A DNA stretch of 35,941 nt. Origin: Smithella sp. GTDB taxonomy: Bacteria; Desulfobacterota; Syntrophia; Syntrophales; Smithellaceae. The translations under genes were made by a program, and so were the position numbers. Every line of letters begins with the position of its first letter. Within the stretch, counting starts at the first letter, position 1. Positions 1,577 to 32,702 of the stretch are shown here, piece after piece. The stretch covers positions 1-35,941 of the forward strand of contig JBDKVD010000292.1 in assembly GCA_039679325.1 (NCBI GenBank). The letters are read 5' to 3'. The notes under the pieces are model-generated. The model searched no databases. It was not told the origin of the DNA and saw only the letters and a program-made list of their open reading frames with translations.

Positions 1577-2035
1577 TTATTGTGCATCCGGTACCGGTTC
1601 GTCTTTAACTAAGAAGATTGAGCAGGGCATCTTCCGGATGATGGCATCATTGCTTCCGCTGATCATAAAATGTTCTATACGGCCTTCTTCCTGGGCACGC
1701 AAAACAACCAGATCAATTTTTTCATTTTCAATAGTTTTCAGGATTTCTTCAACCGGATTTCCTTCTTTAATAATCTCTCTAATATTCATGCCCTTCTTTT
1801 TTTCGCTGTTAATAATTTCGTCCAGTTCCTGCTTTTCTCTCTCCAAATCTCTCTTTCGCTCTTCGATCATTGATATCATAGGCACGCTCCATCCCTGAAG
1901 CCAGAATGTATTCACTATATGAATCACGGAAAGTTCAGCTCGATATTTCGCCGCCAGTGAAACTCCATAATGGACCGTCTTTTGACAAGATTGGGTTATC
2001 CAGCTTACAACAAGAATACGATTAATATCTTTCAT
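1577..2035 (-). CDS. Universal stress protein (USP)
   Basis: MKDINRILV... with GNPVEEIL, IDLVVL and AIIRKMPCSIFLV. Strong RBS (GGAGG) before ATG 2035. The ORF-track extension to 2194 overlaps another gene. Confidence 0.88.
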   Translation of the reverse strand: MKDINRILVVSWITQSCQKTVHYGVSLAAKYRAELSVIHIVNTFWLQGWSVPMISMIEERKRDLEREKQELDEIINSEKKKGMNIREIIKEGNPVEEILKTIENEKIDLVVLRAQEEGRIEHFMISGSNDAIIRKMPCSIFLVKDEPVPDAQ

Positions 2036-2049
2036 GTTCTTCCTCCTTT

Positions 2050-2199
2050 CTAAACGGGTTTCCTTCCCTGAATTACTCTGATCAGCACAACGATGACGGC
2101 AATGACCAGCAGGACATGAATAAAATAACCCATTGTATAGCCGGTCAGCAGCCCCAGCAGCCACAAAATTATCAGTACCACGGCAATTGTCCACAACAT
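2050..2199 (-). CDS. lmo0937-family (DUF5670-like) small membrane protein, 49 aa
   Basis: Manually translated MLWTIAVVLIILWLLGLLTGYTMGYFIHVLLVIAVIVVLIRVIQGRKPV. Two hydrophobic segments. Paralogs at 31197 and 31910. Confidence 0.85.
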   Translation of the reverse strand: MLWTIAVVLIILWLLGLLTGYTMGYFIHVLLVIAVIVVLIRVIQGRKPV

Positions 2200-2226
2200 A
2201 TGATCATTCTTTCCGATTGATACTTT

Positions 2227-2268
2227 TCACTGCCGGCTGATGCATTCTGCTGTGCCAGCCGGCAGTGA
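2227..2268. other. Perfect 13-bp stem-loop downstream of triple-BON gene 1
   Basis: TCACTGCCGGCTG-16 nt-CAGCCGGCAGTGA. No U-tract on the coding strand. Confidence 0.6.
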
Positions 2269-2295
2269 TCATATCTTCTCTTTGGGTTTGGTCGA

Positions 2296-3054
2296 CTACT
2301 CGATGGTCATCCGGTTCTTTACACTCTTTACACCGTTTACATCGATGGCGAATTTAGTGGCCAGATCCTTTTCGGCTGCATTTTTCGCTTTGCCGCTCAA
2401 TGTAACCACACCCCTCTTCGTGGTGACCGAGGTATTGAGGGCGCTGGTTGAGCGGTGATAAAGCAGCGTCATCTTGACTTGGGCGGTGATCGAAGCGTCA
2501 TCAATCCTGGAGCTTGCCGTTTGCTTCTTTTTCGGAGCCTTTCCTATGGTCATTTCATTATTCACATCTTTAACACCTTCGACATCCCTGGCGTATTCAG
2601 TCGTCAAGTCCTTTTGGGCCTGATTAGCCGCTTCGCCTCGTAGAGTCACAATGCCGTCTTTGACGTTAACCTCTGTTGTGCCGACGCTTACGCTGCGATG
2701 AAACAAGAGGGTGTATTTCACTTTGTCACGGAGCAATGCATCCGAGTCTGCGGTGGGGGGAGTCCCTTTGATTTCCAGTCTGTTGTCCACACTTTTAACA
2801 CCGGGGAGACTTGCTACCGTTTCCTGGGCCAACGACTTGTTGAAGTTGTCGGCAACCGTCCCCGTCAAAGTGACGGCGCCATCATTGGACTCTATTTTGA
2901 TATCATCGCCCTTGAGGAAGGTCTTGAATACGTATGAATGCCTGGCTGTCGATTCGATGCGGTTATCCGTCCTGGAAGCATATACAGGCATGCTGAGCGC
3001 CAGCAGAGCAAACGCCGCAGCCATCATTACTACTAGTCTATACATTGTTTTCAT
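2296..3054 (-). CDS. Secreted triple-BON-domain (OsmY-like) protein
   Basis: Signal peptide followed by three repeats of GxVTLxG...VxGVKxVxNx(L/M), and DDASITAQVK. Confidence 0.9.
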   Translation of the reverse strand: MKTMYRLVVMMAAAFALLALSMPVYASRTDNRIESTARHSYVFKTFLKGDDIKIESNDGAVTLTGTVADNFNKSLAQETVASLPGVKSVDNRLEIKGTPPTADSDALLRDKVKYTLLFHRSVSVGTTEVNVKDGIVTLRGEAANQAQKDLTTEYARDVEGVKDVNNEMTIGKAPKKKQTASSRIDDASITAQVKMTLLYHRSTSALNTSVTTKRGVVTLSGKAKNAAEKDLATKFAIDVNGVKSVKNRMTIE

Positions 3055-3123
3055 TTATCCCTCTGTGCCAATATAATTGAGACACTTTCTCCTGTTATTG
3101 TTGCTACTGTTGTTTAATAAACT

Positions 3124-3303
3124 CTATTTTTCCAGAACCTTCTTGACCTGACCGATCTTTTCCTGAACTTCGCCGGCTATCTTTTCAACGGTGCCTTCGG
3201 TTTCCAATTCAGGGTTATCGCTTAGATCCCCCGCTACTTCTTTGATCTTGCCCTTAATTTGGTGGAACTTTCCTTCCACCTGATCCTGCGTACCTGATTT
3301 CAT
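3124..3303 (-). CDS. CsbD-family general stress protein, 59 aa
   Basis: Manually translated MKSGTQDQVEGKFHQIKGKIKEVAGDLSDNPELETEGTVEKIAGEVQEKIGQVKKVLEK. RBS GGGAG. Below the ORF-track cutoff. Confidence 0.88.
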   Translation of the reverse strand: MKSGTQDQVEGKFHQIKGKIKEVAGDLSDNPELETEGTVEKIAGEVQEKIGQVKKVLEK

Positions 3304-3340
3304 GATATTCTCCCTTCGTATTATTTATTAACAGGTAATA

Positions 3341-3487
3341 GCAAATAGTCGGCCAATACCCGAAAGATAATCAGAAGTTTTGATTCATCTTTTATAACAG
3401 TAGATTAGATTGGCAGGGGAGAGCGGCAGAAATAGATGAAATGATTTGTTTGGCCTCAATATTTGGTGGAGCCTCAGTATATCGAGG
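3341..3487 (-). promoter_or_regulatory. Sigma54 promoter cassette copy 1
   Basis: Minus-strand TTGGCCGACTATTTGC (3356-3341, GG-N10-GC). IHF-like TAACAGtagaTTA at 3395-3407. Boxes CCTCAATATTTGGTGG (3454-3469) and CCTCAGTATATCGAGG (3472-3487). Confidence 0.85.
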
Positions 3488-3584
3488 GATGGTTGAAATA
3501 TTCGGGAGTCAGTATTGATAAGATTTTTCATTCTGAGCTCTGTCTTCTGAATTCGCAATGCCGTCGGGTTTCAGAAATATTGCT

Positions 3585-4706
3585 TCATGTCATTGTCCCT
3601 ATGGTTTTGCGAAAGCGTGCCAGGGACAGGGAAAACAGGGAGGCCCCGATCACGACAAGGGCGATAAATTGCGGCCAGACGACTGAAAGTCCTGCACCAC
3701 GATACAGGATGGCTTGAGCAAGAATGACGAAATGAGTATTCGGTGCTGCCTGCATCAGGAATTGTATGAATTGGGGCATGCTCTCCCGCGGCGTCATGCC
3801 ACCCGAAAGCATCTGTAACGGCAACAACACCAGCATCAGCAGCAATCCGAATTGAGGCATCGAACGGGCAATCGTACCAAGAAAGATGCCGAGGGACGCG
3901 GTGGCAAACAGGTGCAGAGTGGTGCCGAAAAGAAACAGACCGATTGAACCTTCGATGGGTACCGAAAGCAGCCCCCGGACGACGAAGATCAGCGAAAAGG
4001 TGGTAGCCGCCAGCACAACCAGAGCCATGGCCCAGACCTTGCTCGTCACGATCTCGAAAGGAGTAACCGGCATCGCCAGAAGGTGCTCCACCGTGCCATG
4101 TTCCCGTTCGCGGATCAGCGCTGCTCCGGCAAGGATAATCGACAACATGGTGACGCTGTTGATGACCTGCATTATTGCGCCGAACCACGATTGGTTCAAC
4201 TCGGGATTGAAGCGCGCCCGCAAGGCCAGATCCACCGGAGGTATTGTGTTTGACCGGTAGCCCTGCAGGAAGGTGCTCACCTCACCGCCGATGATGGCCT
4301 GGATGTAACCGCTGCCGGTAAAAGCCTGGCCCATGCGGGTGGCATCGACATTGAGCTGTATCACAGGATTGCGGCCTGCCAGGACATCGCGCTGGAAACC
4401 GGAGGGGATAGTGAGTGCAAAGGTATCGCGGCCGGCGTCCATCCGGGCATCCGCCTCGGACTGGGCGATCAACGCCGGGGGCATGAAATGAGGCGGGTAG
4501 AAGGCGTCGGTAATACGTGTGGAGAGGGGTGATTGATCCTCGTCAATAATGGCGATGGGGGCTTTGTGCAATGTCTCCGGCGTAGCCGTTGCAGCGGTGT
4601 AAACCGAAAACGTAAAAGAATATACAACCAGTACAATCATAATCGGTTCGCGCAGCAGGCTGCGCAATTCTTTAACACCAAGGTGGAGAATATTTGCCGT
4701 GCGCAT
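3585..4706 (-). CDS. yhhJ: ABC-2 type permease (YhhJ-like)
   Basis: LGVKELRSL..., REREHGTVEHLL, ARSMPQFGLL, GGMTPRESMP; multiple TM helices; directly follows rbbA. Confidence 0.88.
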   Translation of the reverse strand: MRTANILHLGVKELRSLLREPIMIVLVVYSFTFSVYTAATATPETLHKAPIAIIDEDQSPLSTRITDAFYPPHFMPPALIAQSEADARMDAGRDTFALTIPSGFQRDVLAGRNPVIQLNVDATRMGQAFTGSGYIQAIIGGEVSTFLQGYRSNTIPPVDLALRARFNPELNQSWFGAIMQVINSVTMLSIILAGAALIREREHGTVEHLLAMPVTPFEIVTSKVWAMALVVLAATTFSLIFVVRGLLSVPIEGSIGLFLFGTTLHLFATASLGIFLGTIARSMPQFGLLLMLVLLPLQMLSGGMTPRESMPQFIQFLMQAAPNTHFVILAQAILYRGAGLSVVWPQFIALVVIGASLFSLSLARFRKTIGTMT

Positions 4707-4708
4707 GT

Positions 4709-7507
4709 TCAGTGCTCCTGTTTTTTGAGCAAGACAGTTCCCAGAGCGATAAGTACGGGTATGGCAATCAATAACGGTACGAAGGAAGAGTAAAGATCAG
4801 ATATGCCGAGCGACTTGGAGAAAGTGCCGCGGGCAATGGTCAGAAAATGGCTTGTCGGATAGTACCTGCCAATCACTGCGCCTGCTCCTTCCAGAGAAGA
4901 AACCGGGTTGATCATTCCGGAAAACTGTACGGCGGGCAGAATGGTCAATAGCACTGTGCCAAACAAAGCGGCGATCTGGCTCTTCATAAAGGTTGAAATC
5001 ACCAAACCGATGGCGGTGGCGGCGATTACATACAGCAAAGCCGCAGCAGCAAGAGTGAGGAAACTGCCTTTGAGCGGTACATCAAACATGAATACCGCTA
5101 ACGCAGTGAGCAGCAGGAAGTTGAGCATTGCCAATGCGATGTAGGGAAGCTGCTTGCCCAACAAAAATTCCAGCCTCGTGACCGGAGTCACATAGAGATT
5201 GACAATAGAACCCAGCTCTTTCTCCCGCACGACCGACAGCGCGGTCAACATGGCCGGGATCAGCATCAGGAGCAGCGGAATCACAGCCGGCACCATGGAC
5301 ACAAGACTCTTGACGTCCGGATTATAACGAAAACGGGTCTCAATGGTCGCCGGGACTGTTAGTGCGGCAGAGCCGATTGTTTGACGCGCCGCGGTTGCCA
5401 GCCACTGTGCGTGTATTCCCTGCGCATAGCCGCGCACCGTTTCTGCCCGCTGTGGCATGGCGCCGTCGATCCAGGCGCCAACGGCAACCGGCGTGCCGCG
5501 TTTCAGGTCTCGGGCGAACCCGGACGGGATTTCGATGGCTAAACTGATCTCGCCTGAACGCATGCGACGATCCATTTCCGCGTAATCGGCAATCGGCGGG
5601 TGCTCGATAAAGTAGCGCGAACCGGAAAGGTTGAGCACATAGTCGCTACTGGTAGTCGTTTGATCGCGGTCGAGCACCGCGAAGGTGAGATTCTCCACAT
5701 CCATGCTGATGCCGTAACCCATCACAAACATCAGTATAGCGCTGCCCAGCATCGCCAGGGTCAGGCGGATCGGATCGCGAAGCAGTTCCAGCGTTTCGCG
5801 CCGGGTATAACTGAATAAGCGGCGTAAACTGAACCAGGCGGTTCGCGCCTCTGGGATCGCGGCGTGTTGTTCGGGAGGCGGTGGGGGGGTGGCAACCGTT
5901 TCGGCGGTTACTGTCGAGGCTCCGGCTGTTTCTTTGGCCAGAGCCTCTTCCAGGTAGCTGATAAAAGCTTCCTCAAGTGAACTGACGCCACGAGCTGCAA
6001 TCAGCGCGGCAGGCGAGTCACTAACCAGCACCCGGCCTGCATGCATGAGTGAGATCCGGTCACATCGTTCCGCCTCGTTCATAAAGTGGGTGGAGATGAA
6101 AATAGTGACCTTATCCTTGCGCGCCAGATCGATCATGATCTGCCAGAAGGCATCGCGCGCCATCGGGTCTACCCCCGATGTCGGCTCGTCGAGAATCAGC
6201 ATTTCCGGACCGTGGATCATCGCCACCGCGAGCGACAATCGCTGACGCTGACCAAGCGGCAGGGCGTCAGGCAGGCTATCCATAACCTCGCTTAAGTAGA
6301 AACGCTGCGCCATCTCTTCCAGACGCGACTCGATGCTCTCTTCCGGCATCTTGAACAAACGTGCGTGCAATACCAGATTCTGCCTGACCGTCAACTCACT
6401 GTAAAGTGAAAACGACTGCGACATATAGCCGACACGCCGGCGCGTATCAAGATCATGCGGATCAACAGGATGACCGAACAGCAGTGCCTGCCCTTCAGTG
6501 GGTGGCAGCAGGCCGGTCAGCATCTTCATGGTGGTGGTCTTGCCACACCCGTTGGATCCCAAAAAACCGAAAATCTCACCTTGCCCGATGCTGAAGCTTA
6601 CATGATCAACGGCGGTGAAATCGCCAAAGCGCATTGTAAGATCATGAGCCTCAATCGCTGTTTCCCCGACGGAGTCAGTCTCGCGGGGGAGGATAACGAC
6701 CGGTTGGTAACCGTCACGCTGAGTCTGCGGCAGCAGGGCGATAAATGCCTCCTCCAGCGTTTCGGCGCCGGTGAGAGTCAGGATCTCCTGCGGGGTGCCC
6801 GTGGCGAGTATGTGTCCGGCATTCATAGCCACGATCCAGTCGAAGCGCGCAGCTTCTTCCATGTAAGCGGTGGCGATGAGCACACTCATGCCGGTTCGCT
6901 CGGAACGAATGTGGTCAATCAGTTCCCAGAACTGCCGCCGCGAGAGCGGATCGACGCCGGTGGTCGGTTCGTCCAGAATCAGCATGTCGGGATCGTGAAT
7001 GAGTGCACAGCACAGGCCGAGTTTCTGCTTCATACCGCCGGAGAGCTTTCCTGCCGGCCTGTCGGTAAAGGGAGCCAGTCCCGTGGCTGTAAGTAACTCA
7101 TTAATACGGCGCTCGCGCTCGTTGCGGCTGTGGCCGAAGAGACTGGCGAAGAAATCAAGATTTTCGGTTACCGACAGCGTTGCGTAGAGATTTTTGCCCA
7201 GCCCCTGCGGCATGTAGGCCACCTGCGGGCAAACAATCCTGCGATGGCGACGGTCGGCGATATTGCCGCCCAAAACTTCGATCCTCCCTGTCTGGATAGC
7301 TCTGGCGCCTGCCAGCAGTGAGAATAGAGTGGACTTGCCCACACCATCCGGGCCGATAAAGCCGACCATGCAGCCTGCGGGCACATCAAGACTAACACCA
7401 TCCAGCGCCAGGGTCTTCCTGCCATAGCGTTGACTGACATCATGCAGCCGGGCCACAGACTGCAACACAGGCAGTGCAAGACCGGTTGCGGAATTATGTT
7501 CACTCAT
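4709..7507 (-). CDS. rbbA: Dual ABC ATPase-permease fusion (RbbA/YhiH)
   Basis: Two Walker A motifs ([16 protein letters not shown]), LSGGMKQK, two LDEPT motifs and a C-terminal ABC-2 membrane domain. ATG 7507 overlaps the upstream stop (ATGA). Confidence 0.9.
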
Positions 7508-8628: not shown

Positions 8629-8672
8629 CGTCCTCTCTCCATAGCTTCATGGCGCATGCAACGCCCTTTGAG

Positions 8673-10088: not shown

Positions 10089-10118
10089 TCTTTATGTCTC
10101 AAGTGCTCGATGTAATTG

Positions 10119-10130
10119 CAAAACGTTTTG
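10119..10130. promoter_or_regulatory. Perfect palindrome, possible operator of the efflux operon
   Basis: CAAAACGTTTTG, about 30 bp upstream of ATG 10088. Confidence 0.35.
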
Positions 10131-10177
10131 TCATGCTCGAATGCTATTGTCGGGCATCCATTCCTGTTTGTCGAAGA

Positions 10178-25200: not shown

Positions 25201-27967
25201 GGGCAATCGCATCCAGACTGAAAAACGCTTCGTAAGGAAGACAAACAAGCGTATACAAAGTCTGAAAAAAGATCCTTCCGGCCTGGCGCAGGGCAGTAAC
25301 AAAATGTTGCCTCCATTGCACATCTTCCGGCTTGCGGAAAAGTTCCAGAAGTATAACGCACACGGAAGGGATCAGAAGAATTCCGATCACCATTATTGTC
25401 CACAGCCAAACCGGAGACATGACGGCCCATCCCATAATTAACATTATGGTCAGAGCCGCAGGAACCAGACTGCGTCTGAGGTTGTCGAAAATCTTCCACT
25501 GGGAAAGCCAGGATAGTTTATTTTTCTGATGTCCCCCACCGAAAACCGGAACCGCCGACCTCAGCCAACCGGCAATTTGCCAATCTCCGCGAATCCAGCG
25601 ATGTCTTCGGCTCACATCCATGCTGTATTGAGACGGATATTCCTCGTATAATTGAACATCGGAGAGTAAACCAGACCGCGCATAACAACCTTCTATGAGG
25701 TCATGACTCAGTATCCTGTTTTCCGGAAAGCGGCCGGAGAGAGCCTTTTCAAACGCATCGACATCATAAATGCCTTTGCCGATATATGAACCTTCACCAA
25801 AGATATCCTGGTAGAGATTGGAAACAACGCGTGTATACGGATCAATGCCGGTTTCCCCTCCCCAGAGTCGTGCATACCATGACTTGCCTTCGCCCGCTAA
25901 GCATTCGGCGATGCGTGGCTGAAGAATACCATAACCATCGCAAATACGCTCCCGGGCTTCATCGTAAAGTGGACGATTCAGCGGATGGGCCATCGTTCCC
26001 ACAAATTTCTGCGCGGAATCGCGAGGAAGTTGAGTATCCGTATCCAGAGTAATGACGTACCTCACATTGGATAATATTTCAGTGATACCGACGATAAGAG
26101 AGAAACAATCTTTGGCGCCGCCGCGCAGAAAGGCATTCAACTCAGCTATCTTTCCACGCTTACGCTCATAACCCATCCAAAGTTGCTCCTCCGGATTAAA
26201 GCGGCGTGGACGATGAAAGAGGAAGAAAGTTCCTCCTTTTACACCTCTATACTTATCATTGAGTTCTTCAATCCGCATCTCGACCAATCGCGAAAGCGCA
26301 TCATCCGCGGAAGTCGTTTCTTCATGGGCATCACGGAAATCGGTAAGTAAGCCGAAGTGCAGGTTATTATCCCGATTTGCCAAAAATCTGATCTCCAGTG
26401 ATTCGACAAGATCTTCTACATTTTGCATGCTCGTAAGCATAGTCGGGATTACCACCAGAGTGCTCGATTCCGGTGGAATTCCCAGGGAAAAGTCCATACG
26501 CGGCAGCGGCTGCGGACGGGCCAGAAGCGTAGCCAGCCAGTTCGTCAGAGCTATTGCCGGACTGCTTGCGCCCAGAATAAAAATAAGTGCTGCAGGCAGA
26601 AGTATCCAACCGTGCAAACTATCGGTTTGAACTTTCAGCAGCAAACCCAGGACGACGATTAATGTGATCACCATGATGGTTGTAAGATAGATTAACAACG
26701 GATACTTGTTGATACTTCGACGAATGAGCTCCGTGACGGGCTTCCGCATCTGAGCCCTTTGTTCAAGTTCGGGCAATCCTTTGTCAATCAGATAAAAACC
26801 AACATGTGACTCTCGATCACTATTGTTAATCTTTGCCAAGCCTTCCCGGGATAAACTGATAGCCAGACAGGCCACTTCACCCTCGGATAAAGGGCTGTGT
26901 TTTGCTATTTTTTCCACCGCATGACGATAACGGTCTCTGGTTACAAAATCCATTCTGCTGTAGATATCACTTGGATCTTCACACAGTATCTGTTCGACAA
27001 CGCTTATTGCCTCGACAAACTCACGCCAATTCATAGCCGTTAGAAACCGGAGGCTGCCGATGCTGTTACTTACGGATACCTGGTCTGCGGCCTGTTGCTG
27101 ATTATCGGAACGGACTAATTGCTCAATCGTTAAATTAGACTCGGAAAGATGCTGCTCGATCCAGGTCAGCGGCAACGCCAAGTCCGGACTCTGCCCTTGC
27201 AAACGACGCGCAAATTCCGCGACAAATGAACTGGCCATCGTTTGATCGGAACGCGCCATATCCGCGATTACCAGAACCAGGCTTTTAGGGTCTCTCCGGG
27301 CGACATCGGCCATCTGGTCAGCCCAATAATCGGCCAGTTCCTTGTCGGCAATACAGTCAATAATCCGTGTTCCAATGCGTCGCAGATTTTCGATCAGCGC
27401 CAGACGCAGCATAATCGGAATTGCCCACAACTCCCCTAATGTAAGATTAGATACCGTTTGGTAGGCTGTAATGAAACTATTGAGACATTCCAGATCCACT
27501 CGTCCATCACCATGGGAGATTATCTCGAGTGCGATATCATATACCCGTGGGAGCCCGGATAAGGCCCCGTTTTGCAGACGCGGCAATTCCAGGCTGTAGC
27601 CTATGGTCAAGTGTCTCTTAGCCATGCGAATATGTTCGTCAATTAAATAGAAGTTATCGAGAAACCATTCTTCGGCAGGCGCTATCGGGCGGTTATCTTT
27701 GACCACGGATGTCAGCTGTTTGCACGTTTCAATCAGCACATCTTCATTGTCATTGAGCCGCGCCAGAAGCTGTTCAGAAGCTCTTTCATCCGTCAGTTTA
27801 TGCACGTTCGCCAGTGCTCTGCCGTGCTGCTTCATCTGTTCGGAACTCAGCAATTCAGATCGCAAAGGTAATTCGACGCGGGAGTACTTTCTTCCGAAAG
27901 CGCCTTTGCGGAAGTGTTTCTTCAATCTGAACAATGGCTCTAAAATTGCTTTGTCGATTAACTTCAC
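19208..27967 (-). CDS. Cyclic beta-1,2-glucan synthase (Cgs/NdvB/ChvB type) with C-terminal GH94 phosphorylase region
   Basis: 2919 aa. GT region (ERKRGK, TLDTDT, SHDLIEG, RRHRWIRGDWQ), TM block, LPPDNYQE, YDLLASEAR, SMFEYLMP, WGISES, and GH94 motifs (YQSGGAFGFRDQLQD, GDWNDG, ENGGQYTH). Confidence 0.93.
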   Translation of the reverse strand: MKLIDKAILEPLFRLKKHFRKGAFGRKYSRVELPLRSELLSSEQMKQHGRALANVHKLTDERASEQLLARLNDNEDVLIETCKQLTSVVKDNRPIAPAEEWFLDNFYLIDEHIRMAKRHLTIGYSLELPRLQNGALSGLPRVYDIALEIISHGDGRVDLECLNSFITAYQTVSNLTLGELWAIPIMLRLALIENLRRIGTRIIDCIADKELADYWADQMADVARRDPKSLVLVIADMARSDQTMASSFVAEFARRLQGQSPDLALPLTWIEQHLSESNLTIEQLVRSDNQQQAADQVSVSNSIGSLRFLTAMNWREFVEAISVVEQILCEDPSDIYSRMDFVTRDRYRHAVEKIAKHSPLSEGEVACLAISLSREGLAKINNSDRESHVGFYLIDKGLPELEQRAQMRKPVTELIRRSINKYPLLIYLTTIMVITLIVVLGLLLKVQTDSLHGWILLPAALIFILGASSPAIALTNWLATLLARPQPLPRMDFSLGIPPESSTLVVIPTMLTSMQNVEDLVESLEIRFLANRDNNLHFGLLTDFRDAHEETTSADDALSRLVEMRIEELNDKYRGVKGGTFFLFHRPRRFNPEEQLWMGYERKRGKIAELNAFLRGGAKDCFSLIVGITEILSNVRYVITLDTDTQLPRDSAQKFVGTMAHPLNRPLYDEARERICDGYGILQPRIAECLAGEGKSWYARLWGGETGIDPYTRVVSNLYQDIFGEGSYIGKGIYDVDAFEKALSGRFPENRILSHDLIEGCYARSGLLSDVQLYEEYPSQYSMDVSRRHRWIRGDWQIAGWLRSAVPVFGGGHQKNKLSWLSQWKIFDNLRRSLVPAALTIMLIMGWAVMSPVWLWTIMVIGILLIPSVCVILLELFRKPEDVQWRQHFVTALRQAGRIFFQTLYTLVCLPYEAFFSLDAIARTLWRMFVTHKRMLEWNPSGNQTGHSNSFAASCRSMWIAPLLSSGLFTYLLISRPGALSSASFVLILWFLSPGITWWASRPIVDRGIKLKDEQIIFLRKMARKTWAFFETFVGPDDHWLPPDNYQEHPATIVAHRTSPTNIGLALLANLSAYDFGYISAGELIERTADTFHTMEKMQRYRGHFYNWYDTQSLATLRPHYISTVDSGNLSGHLLTLRWGFIDLPDQKIWQTQLFKGISDTNTCLMEAAGAKAPKQLADFQKYLASLSDPDKMMLKPLQRCLDHIAKSSIGLVRAFDANTQSDIIRWVKALVHQCGDALDEITFLCPWLTLKCPSAGLTDYFDTMEIPTLRKLAILEVELLPVVENIIGINPTVEDAEWFADFRRMIREGSLRAGERIATINNLAAQAKDFADMDYSFLYDKERQLLTIGYSTTESRRDASYYDLLASEARFCSFIGIAQGQLPQENWFALGRLLTNPGRHPVLLSWDGSMFEYLMPLLVMPNYENTLLDQTYKAAVSRQIDYGKNRGVPWGISESGYSMIDVHLNYQYRAFGVPGLGLKRGLSDDLVVAPYASVLALMVAPEEACLNLQQLSRDGMEGPYGFYEAIDYTSSRLPRGRSSVVVRSFMAHHQGMSLLALAHLLLDRPMQKRFESDPMFQATRLLLQERIPRAVAFYRQIAEDITMRKDSFIQEFPARVFNTPNTPVPEVQLLSNGRYHMMITNAGGGYSRFQELAVTRWREDSTRDNWGTFCYIRDVISGNFWSTAYQPTLKQPERYEAIFSDAKVEFRRRDNGISTHTEIAVSPEDDIELRRIRISNRSRRLREIEITSYAEIVLAVPAADELHPAFSNLFVQTEIIRERQTILCTRRPRSKGEPAHWMFHLMALHGADSEEVSYETDRLKFIGRGNTSANPQAMNWSAEALSNTAGSVLDPIVAIRCRVKLDAGEDVTIDIVSGISETRSKTLSLAEKYHDHSLADRVFNLAWTHSQVVLRQINASEADAQLYGRLAGSVIYSNSSLRAQPKIIIKNCRGQSSLWGYAISGDLPIVLLRIGDYANIELVRQLEQAHAYWRLKGLRVDLMIWNEDNATYRQFLHDQIKGMITAGTETKIIDKPGGIFVRTGDQISNEDRILLQTVAHIVIKDTWGTLVEQINRRSLIEAVVPRFRPTRTQPAEIRKIKELAYPDLIFENGLGGFTPDGREYVITTKPGSVTPAPWVNVLANPNFGSVISESGSASTWSENAHEYRLTPWYNDPISDISGEAFYIRDEETGHFWSPMPLPCRGATPYISRHGFGYSVFEHVEEGIRSEVWIYVAIDAPVKFTVLKLSNESGRSRSLSVTGYVEWVLGDLRSKTMMHVTTEVDIGSGALFARNLYNTEFAGRVAFFDVDDNNRSITGNRTEFIGRNGELSNPAAMTRTQLSGKVGASLDPCGAIQVNLELDDGQEREVIFRLGVTGRRGADDASNTVRSFKGSTIAQSFLDAVQKYWHKTLGTIRVETPDPSLNVLANGWLLYQTQVCRLWARNGYYQSGGAFGFRDQLQDTMALVYTQPALVRQHLLLCASRQFQEGDAQHWWHPPSGRGVRTQCSDDYLWLPLSVSRYILTTSDLSILSEIVRFVEGRPVRAEEDSYYALPGVTEEATSLYDHCVRAIKRGLRFGSHGLPLMGSGDWNDGMNKVGESGKGESVWMGFFLYEVLIKFAEIARMNSDMPFAELCRKEAAGLQQNIERDGWDGQWYRRAYFDDGSLLGSATNTECRIDSIAQSWSVLSGAGAPERMREAMEAVDSLLVHRKQKLIQLLDPPFDKSAMEPGYIKGYVPGVRENGGQYTHAAIWAAMAFAVLRDNQRLGDLLSMINPINHARSPEEAEIYKVEPYVITSDVYALYPHVGRGGWTWLTGSAAWMYRLILESLLGMSISMNKMSFDPCLPVGWEEFKILYLFRETVYRITVRQTKNKEEEASVTLDGFVRPDRMIQLVNDHQVHLVEVIIPPVGRGKKHGEIRMIE

Positions 27968-29070
27968 TCTTCTAATTTCCGCATCATTCGTTTTGCTAAG
28001 CGAAATGCCTTCAATTTTAATTGCTCTCCACGACCAAACCAGATTGAATTCAATCGCGTGGTTTCATCTTCATTCAACATCATGTGGTCCGTGTATTCGG
28101 CGACACTGTTGAAAGCCCCCCATAACGTCCCGTGCGCCAGATGTGCTCCATGGCCGGAATCATGCAACTTAAGCACGCTGTTTCTGATCTGCTGTGTTCT
28201 TGCAGTATTCTCCGCCTCTTCGTTCTCCGGAACCAGTGCCTGCACATAATCCCGCAGTTGCACATCAGTGATTTTTCTGGCCGCCATGCTGTTGAACATA
28301 ATATCGAGTTGCCTATATAAGGAATCCGCCCACCCGAGCATTGCGACTGGTTGTTTCAAATCCCTTACCGTGTTTTGTGTATGACCGATTTGGACTTCTC
28401 CCGTTCCCTGTAATGCCGACGTTAAAGTATTATTGCAGACGACACGGATGGGCGTAAGCTTCACTCGAACATGTGAGCTGCCGTCATGACTATTTGTGAG
28501 CAGGAGATATTTGTTGACAATGTCGTTGCCATTGACATTAATGTAACCAGAAAGTCTCGCCAGAATCCAGATACATTCACCACAACCCAGTGCGCCGGCC
28601 GTTTCGTATATTGCTTCGCCGCTACCGACCAGGGTATCGAAGAATGTGAAGGCATCGATGTTCTGAACGGGTTCGTAACTCTCGTTGACGAAGCCCATAA
28701 CTTCATCGGTATCCGTTCGCACCATTGCATATGCATCCTGCTTTAACCCCGTTTTCAACTTCAACGGCTTCTTTATGACGGTATAATCCAACCCGGCCAT
28801 TTCTATGGCCTCACTCGCGGTCTTAGGGTGATTCAACTCGATTCCCACATTATGCCACGGTGCCGGTAATGATTCAGGATATGGAGAAAGAGTTTGCGGC
28901 ACCGGCATGTGCAGTCTGCGTAACGTCGCCTCACTCACTGTAGATTGATACAATGGATGATCGGGAGTAGTGATATTAAAGAGTGGAAAAATTTCTCCGG
29001 AAATTTTTTCCTGCCACCCAATGAAATTTGCGTCCGGGTCCGAACCAGTTGAATTTATGTGTTTAAACAT
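27964..29070 (-). CDS. DUF932-type (phage/plasmid-associated) protein with an extra N-terminal domain
   Basis: PWHxxG, YEPVQNxDAFxFFD, ETAGALxxG, YLLLTNSHDGS, TPIRVVCNNTL, GTLWGAFNSVAEYTDH, LKLKAF. RBS GGAGG before ATG 29070. The stop overlaps the cgs start. Confidence 0.8.
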   Translation of the reverse strand: MFKHINSTGSDPDANFIGWQEKISGEIFPLFNITTPDHPLYQSTVSEATLRRLHMPVPQTLSPYPESLPAPWHNVGIELNHPKTASEAIEMAGLDYTVIKKPLKLKTGLKQDAYAMVRTDTDEVMGFVNESYEPVQNIDAFTFFDTLVGSGEAIYETAGALGCGECIWILARLSGYINVNGNDIVNKYLLLTNSHDGSSHVRVKLTPIRVVCNNTLTSALQGTGEVQIGHTQNTVRDLKQPVAMLGWADSLYRQLDIMFNSMAARKITDVQLRDYVQALVPENEEAENTARTQQIRNSVLKLHDSGHGAHLAHGTLWGAFNSVAEYTDHMMLNEDETTRLNSIWFGRGEQLKLKAFRLAKRMMRKLEE

Positions 29071-29087
29071 ATTAGCCTCCGTCAGCA

Positions 29088-29465
29088 TCAATCCTTATAT
29101 GTTGTTATCCGCCCAGGGCAGATGTTCACAACTGCCGAACAGTTACAGCCTTGTTTATCAGGAAGAAAATATTCGGTAACTTTCTTGTAGTCATCATTAG
29201 CCTTCGCTTTAAAATCTTCCTGTTGATATTCTATATTATTTTTTCTCGTGTTTTTCTCCTTTGTCTCTTTCTCTTTACCGCCTGTCTTCCCCGGAGTGTT
29301 TACCTCATGAATCTGGCGTGGTTGAGACTGCGTCCCGGCCTCTCGCGGCTGCCCCGGTTCTGATGAAGTCCTTCGGCTGCTCTCATAGATTGTGTCCAAC
29401 TTCGGGGAGGCAGTCGCCTGAGTCCCTGAATGATCCTGATCAACATTCCAACTTATTCCGATCAA
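29088..29465 (-). CDS. Hydrophilic hypothetical ORF, possibly degraded
   Basis: Open frame filling the gap, but a TTG start without a clear RBS and low complexity. Confidence 0.3.
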   Translation of the reverse strand: MIGISWNVDQDHSGTQATASPKLDTIYESSRRTSSEPGQPREAGTQSQPRQIHEVNTPGKTGGKEKETKEKNTRKNNIEYQQEDFKAKANDDYKKVTEYFLPDKQGCNCSAVVNICPGRITTYKD

Positions 29466-29573: not shown

Positions 29574-30347
29574 CTACTCGATGGTCATTTTGTTATTTAC
29601 GCTCTTCACACCATTTATATCATTGGCGAGTTTGGTGGTCAGATCCCTTTCGGCTGCATTACCGGCCTTGCCATATAACGTGACTACACCTTTTTCCGTT
29701 TTGACTTTGGTATTGATGGTGCTGGTGGAGCGATGGAACAGCAGCGTCATCTTAACCTGGGCGGTAATGGAAGCGTCATCAATATCTGTGCCTACGCCTG
29801 TTTTTGCGGTTTTTGCGGGCTTGGACACTACTGTCATCTCATTATTTACGTCTTTGACTCCTTCAACATCTCTGGCGTATTCAGTTGCCAATTCCTTCTG
29901 TGCCTGACTTGCAGCCACGCCTTGCAGGGTGACGATGCCTTCTTTGACTTTAACTTCAGTTTTCGTGGCGCTTACGCTCCGATGGAACAAGAGCGTGGTT
30001 GTTACTTTTGCACTGAGCCATGCATCTGAATATGGGGTGGGGGAAGCACTTTTGAGTTCCAGCCTGTTATCGACACTTTCGACACCGGGCAGGTCCATCA
30101 CGGTCTCATAAGCCAATGATTTATGGAATTCATTCAAGACTGTTCCCGTCAAGGTGACGACGCCGTCTTTGGAGTGAATTTTAATATCATCGTCACTGAG
30201 GTAAGTTTTGAATACATATGACTTCCTGGCCGATGATTCGATGCGGTCATCGGTCTTGGACGCGTAGACAGGCATACTGGTCGTAAACATAGCGACCACA
30301 GCCACCATCATAACTAGAACTGCAAAATACATTGTTTTTGTTTTCAT
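29574..30347 (-). CDS. Secreted triple-BON-domain protein, paralog of 2296-3054
   Basis: Shares RIESxARxSYVFKT, TLLFHRSVS, DDASITAQVKMTLL and the C-terminal MTIE with copy 1. Confidence 0.9.
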   Translation of the reverse strand: MKTKTMYFAVLVMMVAVVAMFTTSMPVYASKTDDRIESSARKSYVFKTYLSDDDIKIHSKDGVVTLTGTVLNEFHKSLAYETVMDLPGVESVDNRLELKSASPTPYSDAWLSAKVTTTLLFHRSVSATKTEVKVKEGIVTLQGVAASQAQKELATEYARDVEGVKDVNNEMTVVSKPAKTAKTGVGTDIDDASITAQVKMTLLFHRSTSTINTKVKTEKGVVTLYGKAGNAAERDLTTKLANDINGVKSVNNKMTIE

Positions 30348-30511: not shown

Positions 30512-30691
30512 CTACTTTTCCAGTACCTTCTCTAATTCGCCGAGCTTTTTTTGAACACTGCCTTCTGTCTTTTCGACTTTGCCTTCAATTTCCAGTTCGG
30601 AATTGTCGCTGAGTTTCCCGGCGACTTCCTTAATTTTACCCTTCACTTCATGGAATTTGCCCTTCGCCTTATCTTTCGTACTTCGTTTCAT
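30512..30691 (-). CDS. CsbD-family protein, 59 aa
   Basis: Manually translated MKRSTKDKAKGKFHEVKGKIKEVAGKLSDNSELEIEGKVEKTEGSVQKKLGELEKVLEK. RBS AGGAGG. Confidence 0.88.
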   Translation of the reverse strand: MKRSTKDKAKGKFHEVKGKIKEVAGKLSDNSELEIEGKVEKTEGSVQKKLGELEKVLEK

Positions 30692-30736: not shown

Positions 30737-31060
30737 CTATTTCACGACCAGATTATTATTAACCGATTTGACCGATTTGACGCTCCTTGCGATTTCACCA
30801 GCTTTATCAACGGCCTTTTGAGAATTAACGAAGCCGCTCAGTTGAACAACGCCCTTGTAGGTTTCAACACTGATCTCGAATGACTTGAGAAAATCATCAT
30901 CGGCCAGCAGAGATTTCACCTTGGTGGTTATGACCGAATCGTCAACATATTCACCCGTGCTTTCATGTGTGCGTGTCGCTCCGCAGGCAGCTATGGCGGC
31001 AAAGGCGGCGATCAGTATAAGAAGCACCAGATAGCGGATAATGACGCTCATTTTTTTCAT
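30737..31060 (-). CDS. Single-BON lipoprotein (OsmY-like)
   Basis: Lipobox IAAC, STGEYVDDSVITTKVK, ETYKGVVQLSGFV. RBS AGGAGG before ATG 31060. Confidence 0.9.
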   Translation of the reverse strand: MKKMSVIIRYLVLLILIAAFAAIAACGATRTHESTGEYVDDSVITTKVKSLLADDDFLKSFEISVETYKGVVQLSGFVNSQKAVDKAGEIARSVKSVKSVNNNLVVK

Positions 31061-31196
31061 GGTAGTTATTCCTCCTGTAAATTTGATTGTTAAAGGGTTC
31101 ATCACGAGATCTTTTCTGCCCCGGCAAAATAATTCTGGAATATGCCGGCTAATTCCTTTCCAAATGCTTCATGTACTTCTGCTAATGTTCCCATGG

Positions 31197-31346
31197 CTAC
31201 AATGGCTTTCGTCCCTGAATAATCCGAATCAGCACCACGACGATGGCGATGACCAGCAGCAAGTGAATGAATCCGCCAATAGTGTAGCCGCTGATCAATC
31301 CCAGAAGCCACAAAACAATGAGAATAACAAATATGGTCCAAAGCAT
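31197..31346 (-). CDS. lmo0937-family small membrane protein, 49 aa
   Basis: MLWTIFVILIVLWLLGLISGYTIGGFIHLLLVIAIVVVLIRIIQGRKPL. RBS AAGGAGG. Confidence 0.85.
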   Translation of the reverse strand: MLWTIFVILIVLWLLGLISGYTIGGFIHLLLVIAIVVVLIRIIQGRKPL

Positions 31347-31442
31347 TTCTCCTCCTTAATATGTTTATTTAATAAATATTTTTATTCCCAAAACTATTTT
31401 GGGGAACCATAAAACTTATCAATGAACATGCTGATCATAAGT

Positions 31443-31591
31443 GCAAATGGCCTGCCAACAAATGGGAAACAAACAGATGCTCAAAATTATCATTTAATAT
31501 AGTGGTTTAGATCGAGAGGAGATAATAACAGGAGAACATGGAATGACTGGTTTGCCCACAATATTTGGTGGAACCCCACCCGATATTGTGG
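31443..31591 (-). promoter_or_regulatory. Sigma54 promoter cassette copy 4
   Basis: TTGGCAGGCCATTTGC (31458-31443). IHF-like segment at 31497-31509 (weaker match). Boxes CCACAATATTTGGTGG (31556-31571) and CCACCCGATATTGTGG (31576-31591). Confidence 0.85.
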
Positions 31592-31758
31592 GGTAGCTGA
31601 GGGATGGAGACAGCTTAATATTGCTCCCATATCTCTCCCGGACTACCTATTCCGAGCTTATGCATTCTCATTTCCAATGTGCATGATAAAGGTGCTATTG
31701 CTGATTTACTTTTTTATATCTGCGGGCGCGCGGGATTTTTTTACAAGGCATTATGTAT

Positions 31759-31960
31759 GACGACCTCGTAAAAAGGCCGGATGCTGCGTTGCGCTTCATC
31801 CCTCCCCGTGTCAAGCACGGGGCAGGCTACCTGCGGCGTACGTCAGGTACGCCTCATTCCTCGGTATTCGCGCGCCTTGCCTGCGACCTCGCGTGCCCTT
31901 CAGGGTATTTTACGAGGTCGTCTGAGAATTGTTAATTTCACGACTTTTTACGAGTCCATC
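31759..31960. mobile_element. ~202-bp MITE-like element with ATGTAT target-site duplication
   Basis: GACGACCTCGTAAAAAG (31759-31775) and CTTTTTACGAGTCCATC (31944-31960) are 14/17 inverted. A second, perfect 15-bp inverted copy lies at 31908-31922. ATGTAT is at 31753-31758 and 31961-31966. Confidence 0.75.
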
Positions 31961-32107
31961 ATGTATAATAACTTCCCGTCTAATAATAATCAGCAGGAGG
32001 AAAATCACTGCTGCAATTAAAATATGGATGAATGAACCCAACGTATGGTCGATTATCAAACCTATACACCAGAAAGTAGACAGTAAAACAATAATTGTCC
32101 ACAGCAT
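31910..32107 (-). CDS. Divergent lmo0937-family protein with MITE-derived C-terminus
   Basis: MLWTII...LGSFIHILI; RBS AGGAGG. The last 16 residues (DGLVKS...) are read from the inserted element. Confidence 0.7.
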   Translation of the reverse strand: MLWTIIVLLSTFWCIGLIIDHTLGSFIHILIAAVIFLLLIIIRREVIIHDGLVKSREINNSQTTS

Positions 32108-32262
32108 ATGATCCTCCTTTACGAATTTATTTAAATCTTATCGCCGGTAGCCGTCTGGAGCGACAAAATTCTCCCTCAGATATTTTTATCAATACCATCG
32201 ACTTAAGGGCTGTAATATCAAGATAAAGAATTAGAGATAACGAGCTTGGCTTTGCCCATAGA

Positions 32263-32439
32263 TCAAGGTGTGCTTCCCGGTATTTTCTGACGATATTCCG
32301 CAGGCATTTCCAATAATTGGACTGTGCCTTGTGATTTATCCTCAATATTGCGTGAATCGTTCCGGAGATGATTGGCAAAAAAGTTTTCGATACGAGTCTG
32401 CAGTTGTTGCCATTCTTGATCTGTGTTACTTGGAGACAT
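32263..32439 (-). CDS. Small hypothetical protein (58 aa), paralog of 15686-15865
   Basis: MSPSNTDQEWQQLQTRIENFFANHLRNDSRNIEDKSQGTVQLLEMPAEYRQKIPGSTP. RBS GGGAGG. First ORF after promoter copy 5. Confidence 0.7.
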   Translation of the reverse strand: MSPSNTDQEWQQLQTRIENFFANHLRNDSRNIEDKSQGTVQLLEMPAEYRQKIPGSTP

Positions 32440-32556
32440 ATCTATTCCTCCCTAAGTGAGTTGGTACAATATCAAAGACGAAACCATGAAATAGTCCGCC
32501 ATCAGGATTAACCAGCTGCATCTAAACATAATTCCGGGTACAATTTTTTAGTATTT

Positions 32557-32702
32557 GCAAGTGACTTGCCAAATATCAAAAATAAACTAAATTCCAGATT
32601 AATCATTTAATAACAAGTAATTAGATCAATAGCAGGGAATAATGGAAAAGCATAAAGAAATTATTTGACCTTAATATTTGGTGGAGCCTCAATATGCTGA
32701 GG
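32557..32702 (-). promoter_or_regulatory. Sigma54 promoter cassette copy 5
   Basis: TTGGCAAGTCACTTGC (32572-32557). IHF-like TAACAAgtaaTTA at 32611-32623. Boxes CCTTAATATTTGGTGG (32669-32684) and CCTCAATATGCTGAGG (32687-32702). Confidence 0.85.

Follow-up and report, generated by a model that had tools for sequence, protein, structure and literature searches.

Gene content and cassette-led units of the window

The stretch of DNA analysed here, henceforth the window, is the whole 35,941-bp contig JBDKVD010000292.1 (C292) of a 2.34-Mb, 295-contig genome bin of Smithella sp. (GCA_039679325.1; 94.9% complete, 2.15% contamination). We picked 32 long, non-overlapping open reading frames (ORFs) from its ORF list, 31 of which lie on the minus strand; the sole plus-strand ORF, a FabH-like gene at 246-1460, falls outside the segment 1577-32702 that is our subject, and within that segment every accepted gene is on the minus strand, as the original prediction of a stress island had claimed. 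Pfam matches (E<=1e-3) were obtained for 24 of the 32 ORFs, and Pfam and NCBIfam together identify CsbD (two copies), BON (three), the lmo0937 family (three), universal stress protein (USP), ABM, DUF1003, DUF3568, OmpA/DUF4398, VIT1, Fe/Mn superoxide dismutase (SOD), DJ-1/PfpI, phosphoglucomutase, a 2919-aa GH94/glycoamylase protein, DUF932 and an OEP-HlyD-ABC-ABC2 exporter. With the translations added, every family named in that prediction is present. Five copies of a roughly 160-bp intergenic element, which we term the cassette, punctuate the segment, and together with its relatives elsewhere they lead us to propose that in the window we probably have the largest assembled part of a stress-protection regulon that depends on sigma-54 and is run by one activator lineage.

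About 20 of the roughly 33 genes of the segment sit in five units, each led by a cassette:

3336-3498 (-), cassette M1: palindromes at 3472-3487 and 3454-3469, -24/-12 element TGGCCGACTATTTGC at 3341-3355; 111.9 bits
3124-3303 (-), csbD, 59 aa, first gene of the M1 unit (PF05532, 64.5 bits)
2296-3054 (-), secreted three-BON protein, OsmY-like, M1 unit (PF04972, three stretches)
2050-2199 (-), lmo0937-family small membrane protein, 49 aa, M1 unit (from the translation)
1577-2035 (-), USP, M1 unit (Usp domain, Pfam)
12282-12444 (-), cassette M2: palindromes at 12419-12434 and 12401-12416, -24/-12 element at 12287-12301; 99.6 bits
10295-12238 (-), M2 unit: ABM 11933-12238, Zn-ribbon ORF 11739-11933, DUF4398 11225-11593, OmpA-DUF4398 10295-11206
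14434-14591 (-), cassette M3: palindromes at 14569-14584 and 14551-14566, -24/-12 element at 14438-14452; 99.1 bits
12550-14377 (-), M3 unit: leader ORF 14318-14377, DUF1003 13749-14321, secreted orf113 13333-13674, orf106 13005-13325, DUF3568 lipoprotein 12550-12987
31438-31600 (-), cassette M4: -24/-12 element TGGCAGGCCATTTGC at 31443-31457; 92.7 bits
29574-31346 (-), M4 unit: lmo0937-family 31197-31346, single-domain BON lipoprotein 30737-31105, csbD 30512-30691, three-BON protein 29574-30347
32552-32713 (-), cassette M5: palindromes at 32687-32702 and 32669-32684, -24/-12 element at 32557-32571; 95.1 bits
31910-32439 (-), M5 unit: orf58, 58 aa with a good ribosome-binding site, 32263-32439; DUF5670/lmo0937-like 31910-32107

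The cassette comprises, in order, two 16-bp palindromes (consensus CCTCAATATnnTGAGG / CCACCAAATATTGAGG, 18 bp centre to centre), an A/T-rich stretch and a -24/-12 element of the form TGGC-N7-TTGC, in which the GG and GC dinucleotides stand 10 nt apart as in sigma-54 promoters, whose consensus is TGGCAC-N5-TTGCW. This geometry is fixed across all five window copies: the centre of the second palindrome lies 106-108 bp from the GG in the four copies measured, and the GC of the -12 element precedes the first start codon by 38-118 bp, the element standing 38 bp ahead of the csbD start in M1 and 49 bp ahead of the ABM start in M2. A sequence-model search of the window with filters off returned exactly five full cassettes (92-112 bits), all facing downstream genes, and no weak or partial copies ahead of the remaining genes; the best other match, at 12 bits, is a palindrome read on the opposite strand. 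Five of the matches to the plain sigma-54 consensus fall in minus-strand intergenic DNA, and it is their surroundings that align as the five cassette copies. The end coordinate of the original prediction, 32702, is itself the outer edge of the outermost palindrome of M5. Sigma-70-like sites in the window are not enriched over shuffled sequences.

In an alignment of 30 cassettes from many genomes, the palindromes and the GGC/TTGC letters are the most conserved parts, the GGC and TGC columns being invariant or nearly so, and the spacing is invariant even as the DNA in between drifts. Conservation so confined to the palindromes and the promoter is indicative of a conserved regulatory site rather than a mobile repeat. 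The claim that the block is wired to sigma-54 stands as far as five -24/-12 elements with a shared upstream enhancer are concerned, and extends to the five units that they lead but not to the block as a whole.

Further copies in the genome and its sigma factors

A profile built from the five window copies retrieves 11 cassettes from the 2.34-Mb genome (E 5.8e-22 to 2.2e-43; next match E=3.3), the six outside the window scoring between E 1.2e-31 and 5.8e-22. TTGC is kept in 10 of the 11 and replaced by GTGC in one, with the full TGGC-N7-TTGC form in 5/5 window copies. All 11 point at the adjacent downstream ORF. Outside the window, one cassette leads genes for CsbD, a PRC-barrel protein and a 140-aa protein without a name, and another leads a small ORF, then a collagen-like ORF and one for a BON protein. 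A third heads a unit coding for DUF488, electron-transfer flavoprotein (ETF) beta, ETF-alpha(Fe-S), a weakly COX2-like product and subunit I of a haem-copper oxidase. The other three precede a small ORF with an acetyl-CoA hydrolase-like gene behind it, the N-terminal part of a P-type cation ATPase, and an unnamed lipoprotein-like ORF. Four of these six cassettes lie within ~1 kb of a contig end.

The genome encodes RpoN (PF04552, G000:C30:7777-8253, E 1.5e-66, in a 503-aa frame), and its sigma-70 family amounts to three PF04542 matches, which we assign to RpoD (595 aa, recognised from its length and region 1.2), RpoH (330.3 bits on TIGR02392, whose cut-off is 323.1) and FliA. As only RpoD, RpoH, FliA and RpoN were found, the cassette-led regulon probably fills the job performed elsewhere by the SigB, RpoS or EcfG regulons. 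Its gene content resembles theirs, in keeping with the likeness originally suggested, while the dedicated sigma-70-family alternative sigma that marks such systems was not found in this bin; judged by this comparison, it would work like a SigB/RpoS/EcfG regulon without being a member of that kind.

The candidate activator

No enhancer-binding protein is encoded in the window, according to both a Pfam scan of its ORFs and a genome-wide search for the activator domain. The latter yielded 16 matches to the sigma-54 activator domain at E<=1e-42, and only one of these, on contig C141, has a cassette on the same contig; this cassette begins 50 bp past the stop codon of the activator gene. The protein is 919 aa long and displays four PAS stretches, an AAA+ domain (PF00158, 234.2 bits, with AAA_lid_14) and a Fis-type helix-turn-helix (HTH_8), without a receiver domain; its translation shows the GAFTGA loop and a Walker A motif (GETGTGKE) expected of an enhancer-binding protein. 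Directly upstream, on the same strand, are genes for KaiC, KaiB and a second KaiB. The supposition that one enhancer-binding protein serves the island thus fares well insofar as a single activator lineage adjoins and co-occurs with the cassette, with the correction that the gene is on C141 and not in the window.

As an aside, the cassette on contig C154 (L002:2-217) leads the N-terminus of a P-type cation ATPase running off the contig, and C141 (L001:1-2274) begins with what remains of such an ATPase gene, 325 bp ahead of kaiC. C154 and C141 may be adjacent, which would place a cassette upstream of the kai-activator operon. We have not adopted autoregulation of this operon, as in loci L026 and L029 kaiC is preceded by neither the ATPase nor a cassette, and the C154-C141 join is not shown.

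Conservation of the activator-cassette pairing in other genomes

A scan of one genome per species yielded 80 loci, and in 24 of them there is an activator ortholog, 60-85% identical over its best segment; their records carry the labels uncultured delta proteobacterium, Syntrophales, Smithella, Syntrophorhabdus and Thermodesulfobacteriota. The cassette is present in 21 of the 24 and in none of the 56 loci with non-orthologous PAS/activator genes. In 19 of the 21 the activator match is separated from the start of the downstream cassette by 27-73 bp, the distance being greater in L016 (3.3 kb) and L024 (361 bp), and in 17 of the 21 an ABM ortholog comes directly after a cassette. Cassettes also precede CsbD, CsbD with a three-BON protein, a single-BON lipoprotein, DUF4398-OmpA (L029) and the N-terminus of a DUF932 protein. 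Thus, sigma-54-type elements are kept ahead of orthologous genes in other genomes, as would be expected of the proposed wiring.

We further examined 61 related genomes, comprising the genome itself and others of the same genus, family and order. The cassette occurs in 17 of the 61, with 1-16 copies each, among them four of the 12 other genomes of the genus and 13 of the 36 of the family; in an even sample of the phylum it is found in seven of 151 genomes, the present one included. Such patchy presence even within the genus points to an accessory trait. When the last 150 residues of the activator, which contain its DNA-binding domain, were used as the query at >=67% identity, matches were found in nine genomes, all of them among the 17 with cassettes, and in none of the 44 without. 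All seven genomes with at least eight cassettes have this ortholog. A full-length query had missed orthologs cut by contig ends in G001 and G008, which the DNA-binding-domain query recovered.

Two relatives have islands of their own. In G033, assembled in 10 contigs, genes for KaiC, KaiB, KaiB, an activator (540 aa), a CheB/CheR/PAS protein and a further activator (664 aa) are followed by 10 cassettes in 43 kb, all on one strand. We scanned 56 of 76 greedily chosen ORFs of this region with Pfam, the 20 left out being 19 on the minus strand (all but two shorter than 100 aa) and one plus-strand ORF overlapping a cassette. The island codes for GGDEF, OmpA-like, CsbD, DJ-1, YtxH, USP, DUF932, ABM, DUF5670 and three-BON proteins, a fatty-acid cis/trans isomerase, FMN reductase, catalase, rubrerythrin, a phospholipase D-type enzyme and a class A penicillin-binding protein. 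The protein between the two G033 activators (L086:7475-10228) is a 917-aa CheB-CheR-PAS fusion; the activators themselves are paralogs with the same DNA-binding domain, one with and one without the Kai-adjacent N-terminal domain discussed below, in place of which the present genome has a single activator with that domain and extra PAS domains.

In G001, of the same genus, a contig opens with the 3' end of the activator gene, followed by nine cassettes in 30 kb. This island contains orthologs of the ADP-forming acetyl-CoA synthetase and DRTGG genes of the right flank of the window (78-80% identity), of DUF932 (70%) and of orf113 (67%), the last following a cassette, along with ABM, an lmo0937-like gene, a member of the orf58/orf59 family and the acetyl-CoA hydrolase of contig C206. 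This gene order suggests that C141, C206 and C292 form one island that the assembly has split at the repeated cassettes. In better-assembled relatives, cassettes are thus gathered on one strand in activator-headed islands of 30-43 kb (G001, G033).

Genes without a cassette and the mosaic structure of the island

The remaining genes of the segment form blocks that have no cassette of their own:

3585-10088 (-), OEP-HlyD-ABC (two ATPases and permease)-ABC2 exporter; GC 56.9%
14856-17645 (-), block of VIT1 14856-15584, orf59 15686-15865, Fe/Mn-SOD 16126-16824 and DJ-1/PfpI 16962-17645; GC 52.6%
17799-19136 (-), phosphoglucomutase
19208-27967 (-), 2919-aa GH94/glycoamylase gene
27964-29091 (-), DUF932/TIGR03299
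29088-29465 (-), orf125

Nothing above 12 bits precedes the 'oxidative' (SOD, DJ-1, VIT1) or the 'osmotic' (glucan synthase) genes, so that the part of the original prediction that had them driven by sigma-54 is not supported. As SOD, DJ-1, VIT1 and the glucan synthase-like gene have no cassette, we regard them as neighbours of the regulon in this genome and not as shown members; DJ-1, catalase and DUF932 do occur within cassette-led runs in relatives (G033, G001). The cassette-less genes would be transcribed by read-through from units upstream of them, or else be under separate control.

Genomic GC is 46%, with 95% of 5-kb windows between 40.6 and 53.1%, and the exporter block exceeds the 97.5th percentile. 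Its GC, and its position wedged between two cassette-led units, suggest that it is probably a foreign insertion; the block was also seen at ~99% identity in DNA contigs of another sample (X3). DNA contigs of run X5, from another sample, join 3489 to 17784 and 14585 to 17784, the latter tying the M3 cassette to the 3' end of the phosphoglucomutase gene, and imply that a cassette directly follows this gene in a related strain; these joints are weak, with depths of 6-8 (7.8 for 14585->17784) and short sides of 30-41 letters. At least two of the cassette-less blocks seem to have been inserted later. We read the island as a mosaic into which DNA has probably been inserted, with five promoters and an activator encoded elsewhere.

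The 2919-aa ORF shows two GH94 supersandwich domains, a GH94 catalytic domain and glycoamylase domains in Pfam; an N-terminal glycosyltransferase part was not identified in it. It has the size (~2900 aa) of cyclic beta-1,2-glucan synthases (Cgs/NdvB) and may be a protein of this kind. The DUF932 protein carries a ~130-aa N-terminal extension, and the stop codon of its gene in the window overlaps the start of the glucan synthase-like gene. DUF932 proteins of this neighbourhood (window 27964-29091, L088:12159-13319, G001:C62:16232-17341) are conserved, chromosomal and of a 'phage/plasmid-like' family; their genes come after a cassette in G001, G033 and L029, directly so in G001 and L029. Just upstream of the segment, on the same strand, 32885-35940 holds genes for a DRTGG/AAA_26 protein (Pta N-terminal-like) and an ADP-forming acetyl-CoA synthetase. 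As their orthologs are inside the G001 island, the island of the window probably extends past its right edge as defined here.

Gene calls and small proteins

Several small genes required re-reading. The second csbD (30512-30691) was added from the small ORFs, and the ABM gene starts at 12238. Two of the three lmo0937/DUF5670-family genes have family matches: the copy at 31197-31346 matches NF033488 (61.3 bits, cut-off 30) and that at 31910-32107 matches DUF5670 in Pfam. The third (2050-2199) was assigned from its translation, which resembles the 31197-31346 copy, and has a match in G001. The Usp domain spans residues 59-197 of the long ORF, and translation of USP probably begins at the ATG near 2035 and not at the GTG at 2194. 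Of the other ORFs, 'orf57' (3385-3558, inside a cassette) and 'orf79' (31102-31341, overlapping an lmo0937-like gene) are probably not genes, and 'orf83' (32127-32378) is doubtful as one. The small unnamed ORFs of the window gave only noise in Pfam at E<=1; NCBIfam returned nothing for the glucan synthase-like protein, DUF1003, orf58, orf59, orf106 and orf125.

The paralogous orf58 (32263-32439) and orf59 (15686-15865), of 58 and 59 aa, share 49% identity over 45 aa and have no family match. A homolog follows a cassette in G001; they constitute an unnamed small-protein family of the regulon. The 19-aa Cys/His-rich leader ORF of the M3 unit (MKNVACSVCHQKKCDHLET, 14318-14377, minus strand) has a good ribosome-binding site and a stop codon overlapping the DUF1003 start (ATGA), and could serve as a coupled leader or else as a short peptide that binds metal. 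A hairpin with a 12-bp perfect stem (CACTGCCGGCTG...CAGCCGGCAGTG) occupies the gap (2195-2295) that parts the three-BON gene from the lmo0937-like and USP genes; its loop contains a TGGCAC-like word with the wrong spacing for sigma-54; this hairpin may be an attenuator or processing site.

RNA runs were available as assembled contigs, X20 holding 10% of the sampled words and X21 next to none, as against 68-98% in the DNA runs X1-X4. Contigs of X20, a sediment metatranscriptome, match the three-BON gene, csbD, OmpA-DUF4398, DUF4398, ABM and DJ-1 at 93-100% identity; one contig lies on 3125-3303 (csbD), and there is also X20 depth in the bin covering SOD. These contigs show such sequences in an RNA library and nothing more, which is weak evidence; that the ABC exporter, the DUF1003 unit and VIT1 have no X20 contigs is likewise not evidence of silence.

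A possible link to a KaiA-less Kai system

The KaiC encoded on C141 (NF006799, 734.6 bits against a cut-off of 408) is closest to the structures 8dba, 8fwi and 8db3 (E 6.6e-202 to 4.9e-193), which we take to be the KaiA-independent KaiC of Rhodobacter sphaeroides. It aligns with 8dba over residues 11-552, through the C-terminal extension, and keeps a Ser-Ser pair at the position of the Glu-Glu in the 8fwi chain. The two KaiB genes score above the Pfam cut-off and just under the NCBIfam cut-offs (105 and 100.9 against 110), and no KaiA was found in the genome. The locus accordingly shows the features of a KaiA-independent KaiC-KaiB system, namely a double-domain KaiC with its phosphorylation site and C-terminal extension, and KaiB with no KaiA found. 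KaiC orthologs (E<=1e-60) are present in 10 of the 61 related genomes, nine of them cassette-bearing and one (G052) not; in G025, G031, G033, G034, G035, G057 and the present genome, the activator gene is preceded by kaiC at a distance of a few kb, both being on one strand.

The putative connection resides in the N-terminus of the activator. In 9/9 other readable loci, the product of the gene after the second kaiB aligns to activator residues 7-176, with 46-75% identity over the first 185 residues. This coiled-coil/PAS domain has 14 matches in the 151 genomes of the phylum sample: nine of the 10 strong ones (E<=1.7e-38) come 19-98 bp after a kaiB match of the same orientation, and the four weak ones (E about 1e-16) are not kaiB-adjacent. 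Of the nine Kai-adjacent proteins, five are histidine kinases (one truncated at a contig end), one is an HD-GYP protein, one has a LuxR-type HTH and two are sigma-54 activators, the latter from the present genome and from G195, which has eight cassettes. A protein search with residues 1-185 recovered 2323 proteins at E<=1e-5, and the best 120 of these mostly contain histidine-kinase domains and in some cases a sigma-54 domain. The occurrence of this domain after kaiB mostly on histidine kinases suggests that the activator carries an input domain that normally couples a kinase to KaiB/KaiC. A study of Pseudomonas describes the KaiC homologs as 'virtually always' beside a histidine kinase, with binding probably via its N-terminal PAS domain, and as contributing to osmotic and oxidative stress resistance (10.1101/2022.01.26.477890).

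Among the variants of this arrangement, the domain heads the LuxR-type HTH protein (L099:936-2330, G141) and a GAF-HD-GYP protein (L098:407-3052, G083), both directly after kaiB, and three tandem kaiB-like genes precede a Kai-adjacent histidine kinase in G181 (G181:C95:24977-26084), where most loci have two.

By analogy of position and domain, the Kai proteins may bind the N-terminal domain of the activator. We tentatively raise the proposal, which we hold at slightly below an even chance, that a KaiA-less KaiC-KaiB-KaiB hourglass timer is read by this domain and gates ~11 stress promoters, making for a timed or anticipatory general stress response. If true, such a response might be tuned, for example, to oxygen or dryness that recurs daily in peat, sediment or biofilm, and this would be the first Kai system outside the cyanobacteria with a readable list of target promoters.

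Proposed mechanism and alternative explanations

Based on the above, we envisage that sigma-54 RNA polymerase would rest closed on the -24/-12 element, with oligomers of the one PAS-AAA+-HTH activator (919 aa, C141) bound to the palindromes. By looping over the bendable A/T-rich stretch, the activator would then open the promoter through ATP hydrolysis, upon which the five units of the window would express CsbD, BON/OsmY-like, lmo0937-like, USP, ABM, DUF1003, OmpA-like and unnamed small proteins, and the six cassettes outside it would add CsbD, the PRC-barrel and BON proteins, the P-type cation ATPase and the DUF488-ETF-haem-copper oxidase unit. We infer the binding of the palindromes by this activator from the adjacency of the two in 19/21 loci and their co-occurrence (9/9 against 0/44 genomes), whereas the 'general stress' function is suggested by the kinds of genes that are led by cassettes. 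As read from the sequence, a familiar mechanism, enhancer-dependent sigma-54 transcription, would here serve an unusual purpose and be coupled to Kai genes.

A number of observations weigh against a regulon so conceived. The evidence for it is computational, drawn from sequence and comparison. The plain sigma-54 consensus is not above chance in the window: TGGCACN5TTGCW with at most two mismatches has 29 matches against 19.6+/-4.4 expected, a number reached by four of 100 shuffles, and with one mismatch 14 against 9.0+/-3.0. About 13 of the ~33 genes of the segment, SOD, DJ-1, VIT1 and the glucan synthase-like gene included, have no cassette, the GC of the exporter and VIT1-SOD-DJ-1 blocks deviates from that of the genome, and the X5 joint from 14585 to 17784, in skipping VIT1-orf59-SOD-DJ-1, weakly suggests that a related strain is without this block. 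In the comparative data, three of the 24 loci with an activator ortholog (L013, L014, L018) have no cassette, and eight of the 17 cassette-bearing genomes, mostly with 1-3 cassettes and some of them fragmented, have no DNA-binding-domain ortholog at >=67% identity. RpoS, SigB or an extracytoplasmic function (ECF) sigma factor were not found, and in a 94.9%-complete bin of 295 contigs this is not the same as their being absent. The A/T-rich stretch is at most a putative site for integration host factor (IHF); the genome has four HU/IHF-family genes.

The target genes bear on what the regulon is for. It might answer one specific signal instead of general stress, in a strict anaerobe most likely exposure to oxygen or a redox change sensed via the PAS domains, with targets that detoxify and protect, and to this account the activator, with four PAS stretches and no receiver, lends itself well; so do the cassette of this genome that leads the DUF488-ETF-ETF(Fe-S)-COX2-like-haem-copper oxidase subunit I unit, the cassette-led units of G033 with catalase, rubrerythrin, FMN reductase and DJ-1, and the presence of SOD and DJ-1 inside the island of the window. 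We nevertheless consider it less likely than not, if a serious alternative, given that most cassette-proximal genes (CsbD, BON/OsmY-like, lmo0937-like, USP, OmpA-like, DUF1003, P-type ATPase) are typical of osmotic, envelope and stationary-phase regulons and that SOD and DJ-1 of the window have no cassette. It is also doubtful that, as the original prediction would have it in its stronger form, the whole 31 kb is co-regulated, with the cassette-less genes expressed by read-through from the five sigma-54 promoters. All genes are indeed co-oriented, several overlap or are closely spaced (e.g. DUF932/glucan synthase), terminator-like sites are not enriched in the window (29 against 21.7+/-4.2; 16 against 15.7+/-4.1), and DUF932, DJ-1 and catalase are found in cassette-led runs of relatives; but the blocks are set apart by gaps of 101-260 bp, strong hairpins being present in some, the two GC-rich blocks have the look of insertions, the related strain appears to be without VIT1-SOD-DJ-1, and read-through would have to span the 12-kb glucan synthase unit.

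As for what binds the palindromes, the cassette-bearing genomes without a close DNA-binding-domain ortholog and the 15 other activator-domain matches (E<=1e-42) in the genome would accommodate a different regulator, with the C141 activator merely neighbouring one cassette. This is improbable in light of the adjacency of activator and cassette across many genomes, the restriction of the DNA-binding domain to cassette-bearing genomes, its presence in all those richest in cassettes, and the fact that no other activator-domain match shares a contig with a cassette in the genome itself. That the 160-bp repeats are selfish or structural elements of the MITE/REP kind, with no promoter role, is scarcely credible: they are multi-copy, and the outside copies tend to lie close to contig ends, as repeats do, yet all 11 are oriented toward a downstream gene, their conservation is concentrated in the palindromes and the GG/GC while the rest drifts, they have no terminal inverted repeats, and their position before orthologous genes is kept at 55-70% protein identity.

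General significance and comparison with known systems

The general stress response of strictly anaerobic syntrophs is poorly known. Many of them are without RpoS, SigB or EcfG-type factors. The regulon proposed here offers a concrete and testable answer, in the form of one sigma-54 activator, one pair of 16-bp palindromes, a single type of promoter and a limited set of target operons, gathered in an accessory island that some close relatives have and others do not. As the activator is encoded behind kaiC-kaiB-kaiB, the cassettes would also offer the defined transcriptional read-out that is missing in research on non-cyanobacterial Kai systems. With no more than a 160-bp cassette and one activator as its parts, the system is small enough for reconstruction as reporters in E. 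coli or Geobacter. Moreover, a regulatory context is suggested for several families of unknown function, namely CsbD, lmo0937/DUF5670, DUF1003, DUF3568, DUF4398, chromosomal DUF932 and orf58/orf59.

We found no published sigma-54-driven CsbD/BON regulon or Kai-activator operon in the full-text literature, supplements and subscription journals lying outside the scope of the search, and within that literature the view that the arrangement is undescribed holds. KaiC, KaiB and 'enhancer binding protein' occur in PMC12288465 in separate contexts, and a 2026 comparative study of the Smithellaceae has no occurrence of Kai or sigma.

NtrC at glnAp2 and NifA at the nif promoters are the classical sigma-54 units with tandem activator sites and a bending site. 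The cassette shares with them the GG-N10-GC promoter, two adjacent dyad sites ~100 bp upstream and an A/T-rich stretch between, and its putative regulator an AAA+ domain with the GAFTGA loop and a Fis-type HTH, one activator serving many promoters as in the nif regulon. It departs from them in that its targets are small general-stress proteins and not nitrogen metabolism, in that the input side of the C141 activator consists of PAS and a Kai-adjacent N-terminal domain and not of a receiver or GAF domain, and in that the 160-bp cassette has been copied nearly in one piece.

Small stress-protein families mark the SigB, RpoS and EcfG regulons, and osmY and yjbJ are under RpoS control. With the SigB (Bacillus, Listeria), RpoS (E. 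coli) and EcfG/PhyR (Alphaproteobacteria) systems, the cassette-led genes have in common CsbD, OsmY-like BON, lmo0937-like, USP and PRC-barrel proteins and, in relatives, YtxH and catalase. They differ in their predicted reliance on sigma-54 and an ATP-dependent activator, not on a sigma-70-family sigma governed by partner-switching or proteolysis, and in being physically clustered. A SigB-dependent promoter stands ahead of csbD in Listeria (PMC8066629), and EcfG is described as the general-stress sigma (PMC7083833).

A dedicated activator acting on stress genes is also a feature of PspF/psp and of sigma-54 regulons of Desulfovibrio vulgaris, which belongs to the same broad group; these stress regulons consist of one or two operons, as against 11 promoters here and up to 16 in relatives. 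In the account of the D. vulgaris sigma-54 regulome, the DVU3305 regulon is labelled 'general stress response, transmembrane transport', and the text has no occurrence of CsbD, BON or osmotic (PMC4641369). Finally, the kai-activator operon resembles the KaiA-less KaiC-KaiB systems with a PAS histidine kinase of Rhodobacter sphaeroides and Rhodopseudomonas palustris, and the KaiC-like/histidine kinase pairs of Pseudomonas, in having after kaiB the N-terminal domain that histidine kinases have in that position, and in that no KaiA was found, and is set apart from these Kai/histidine-kinase systems by its two KaiB paralogs and by a predicted output in the form of a sigma-54 activator with identifiable target promoters.

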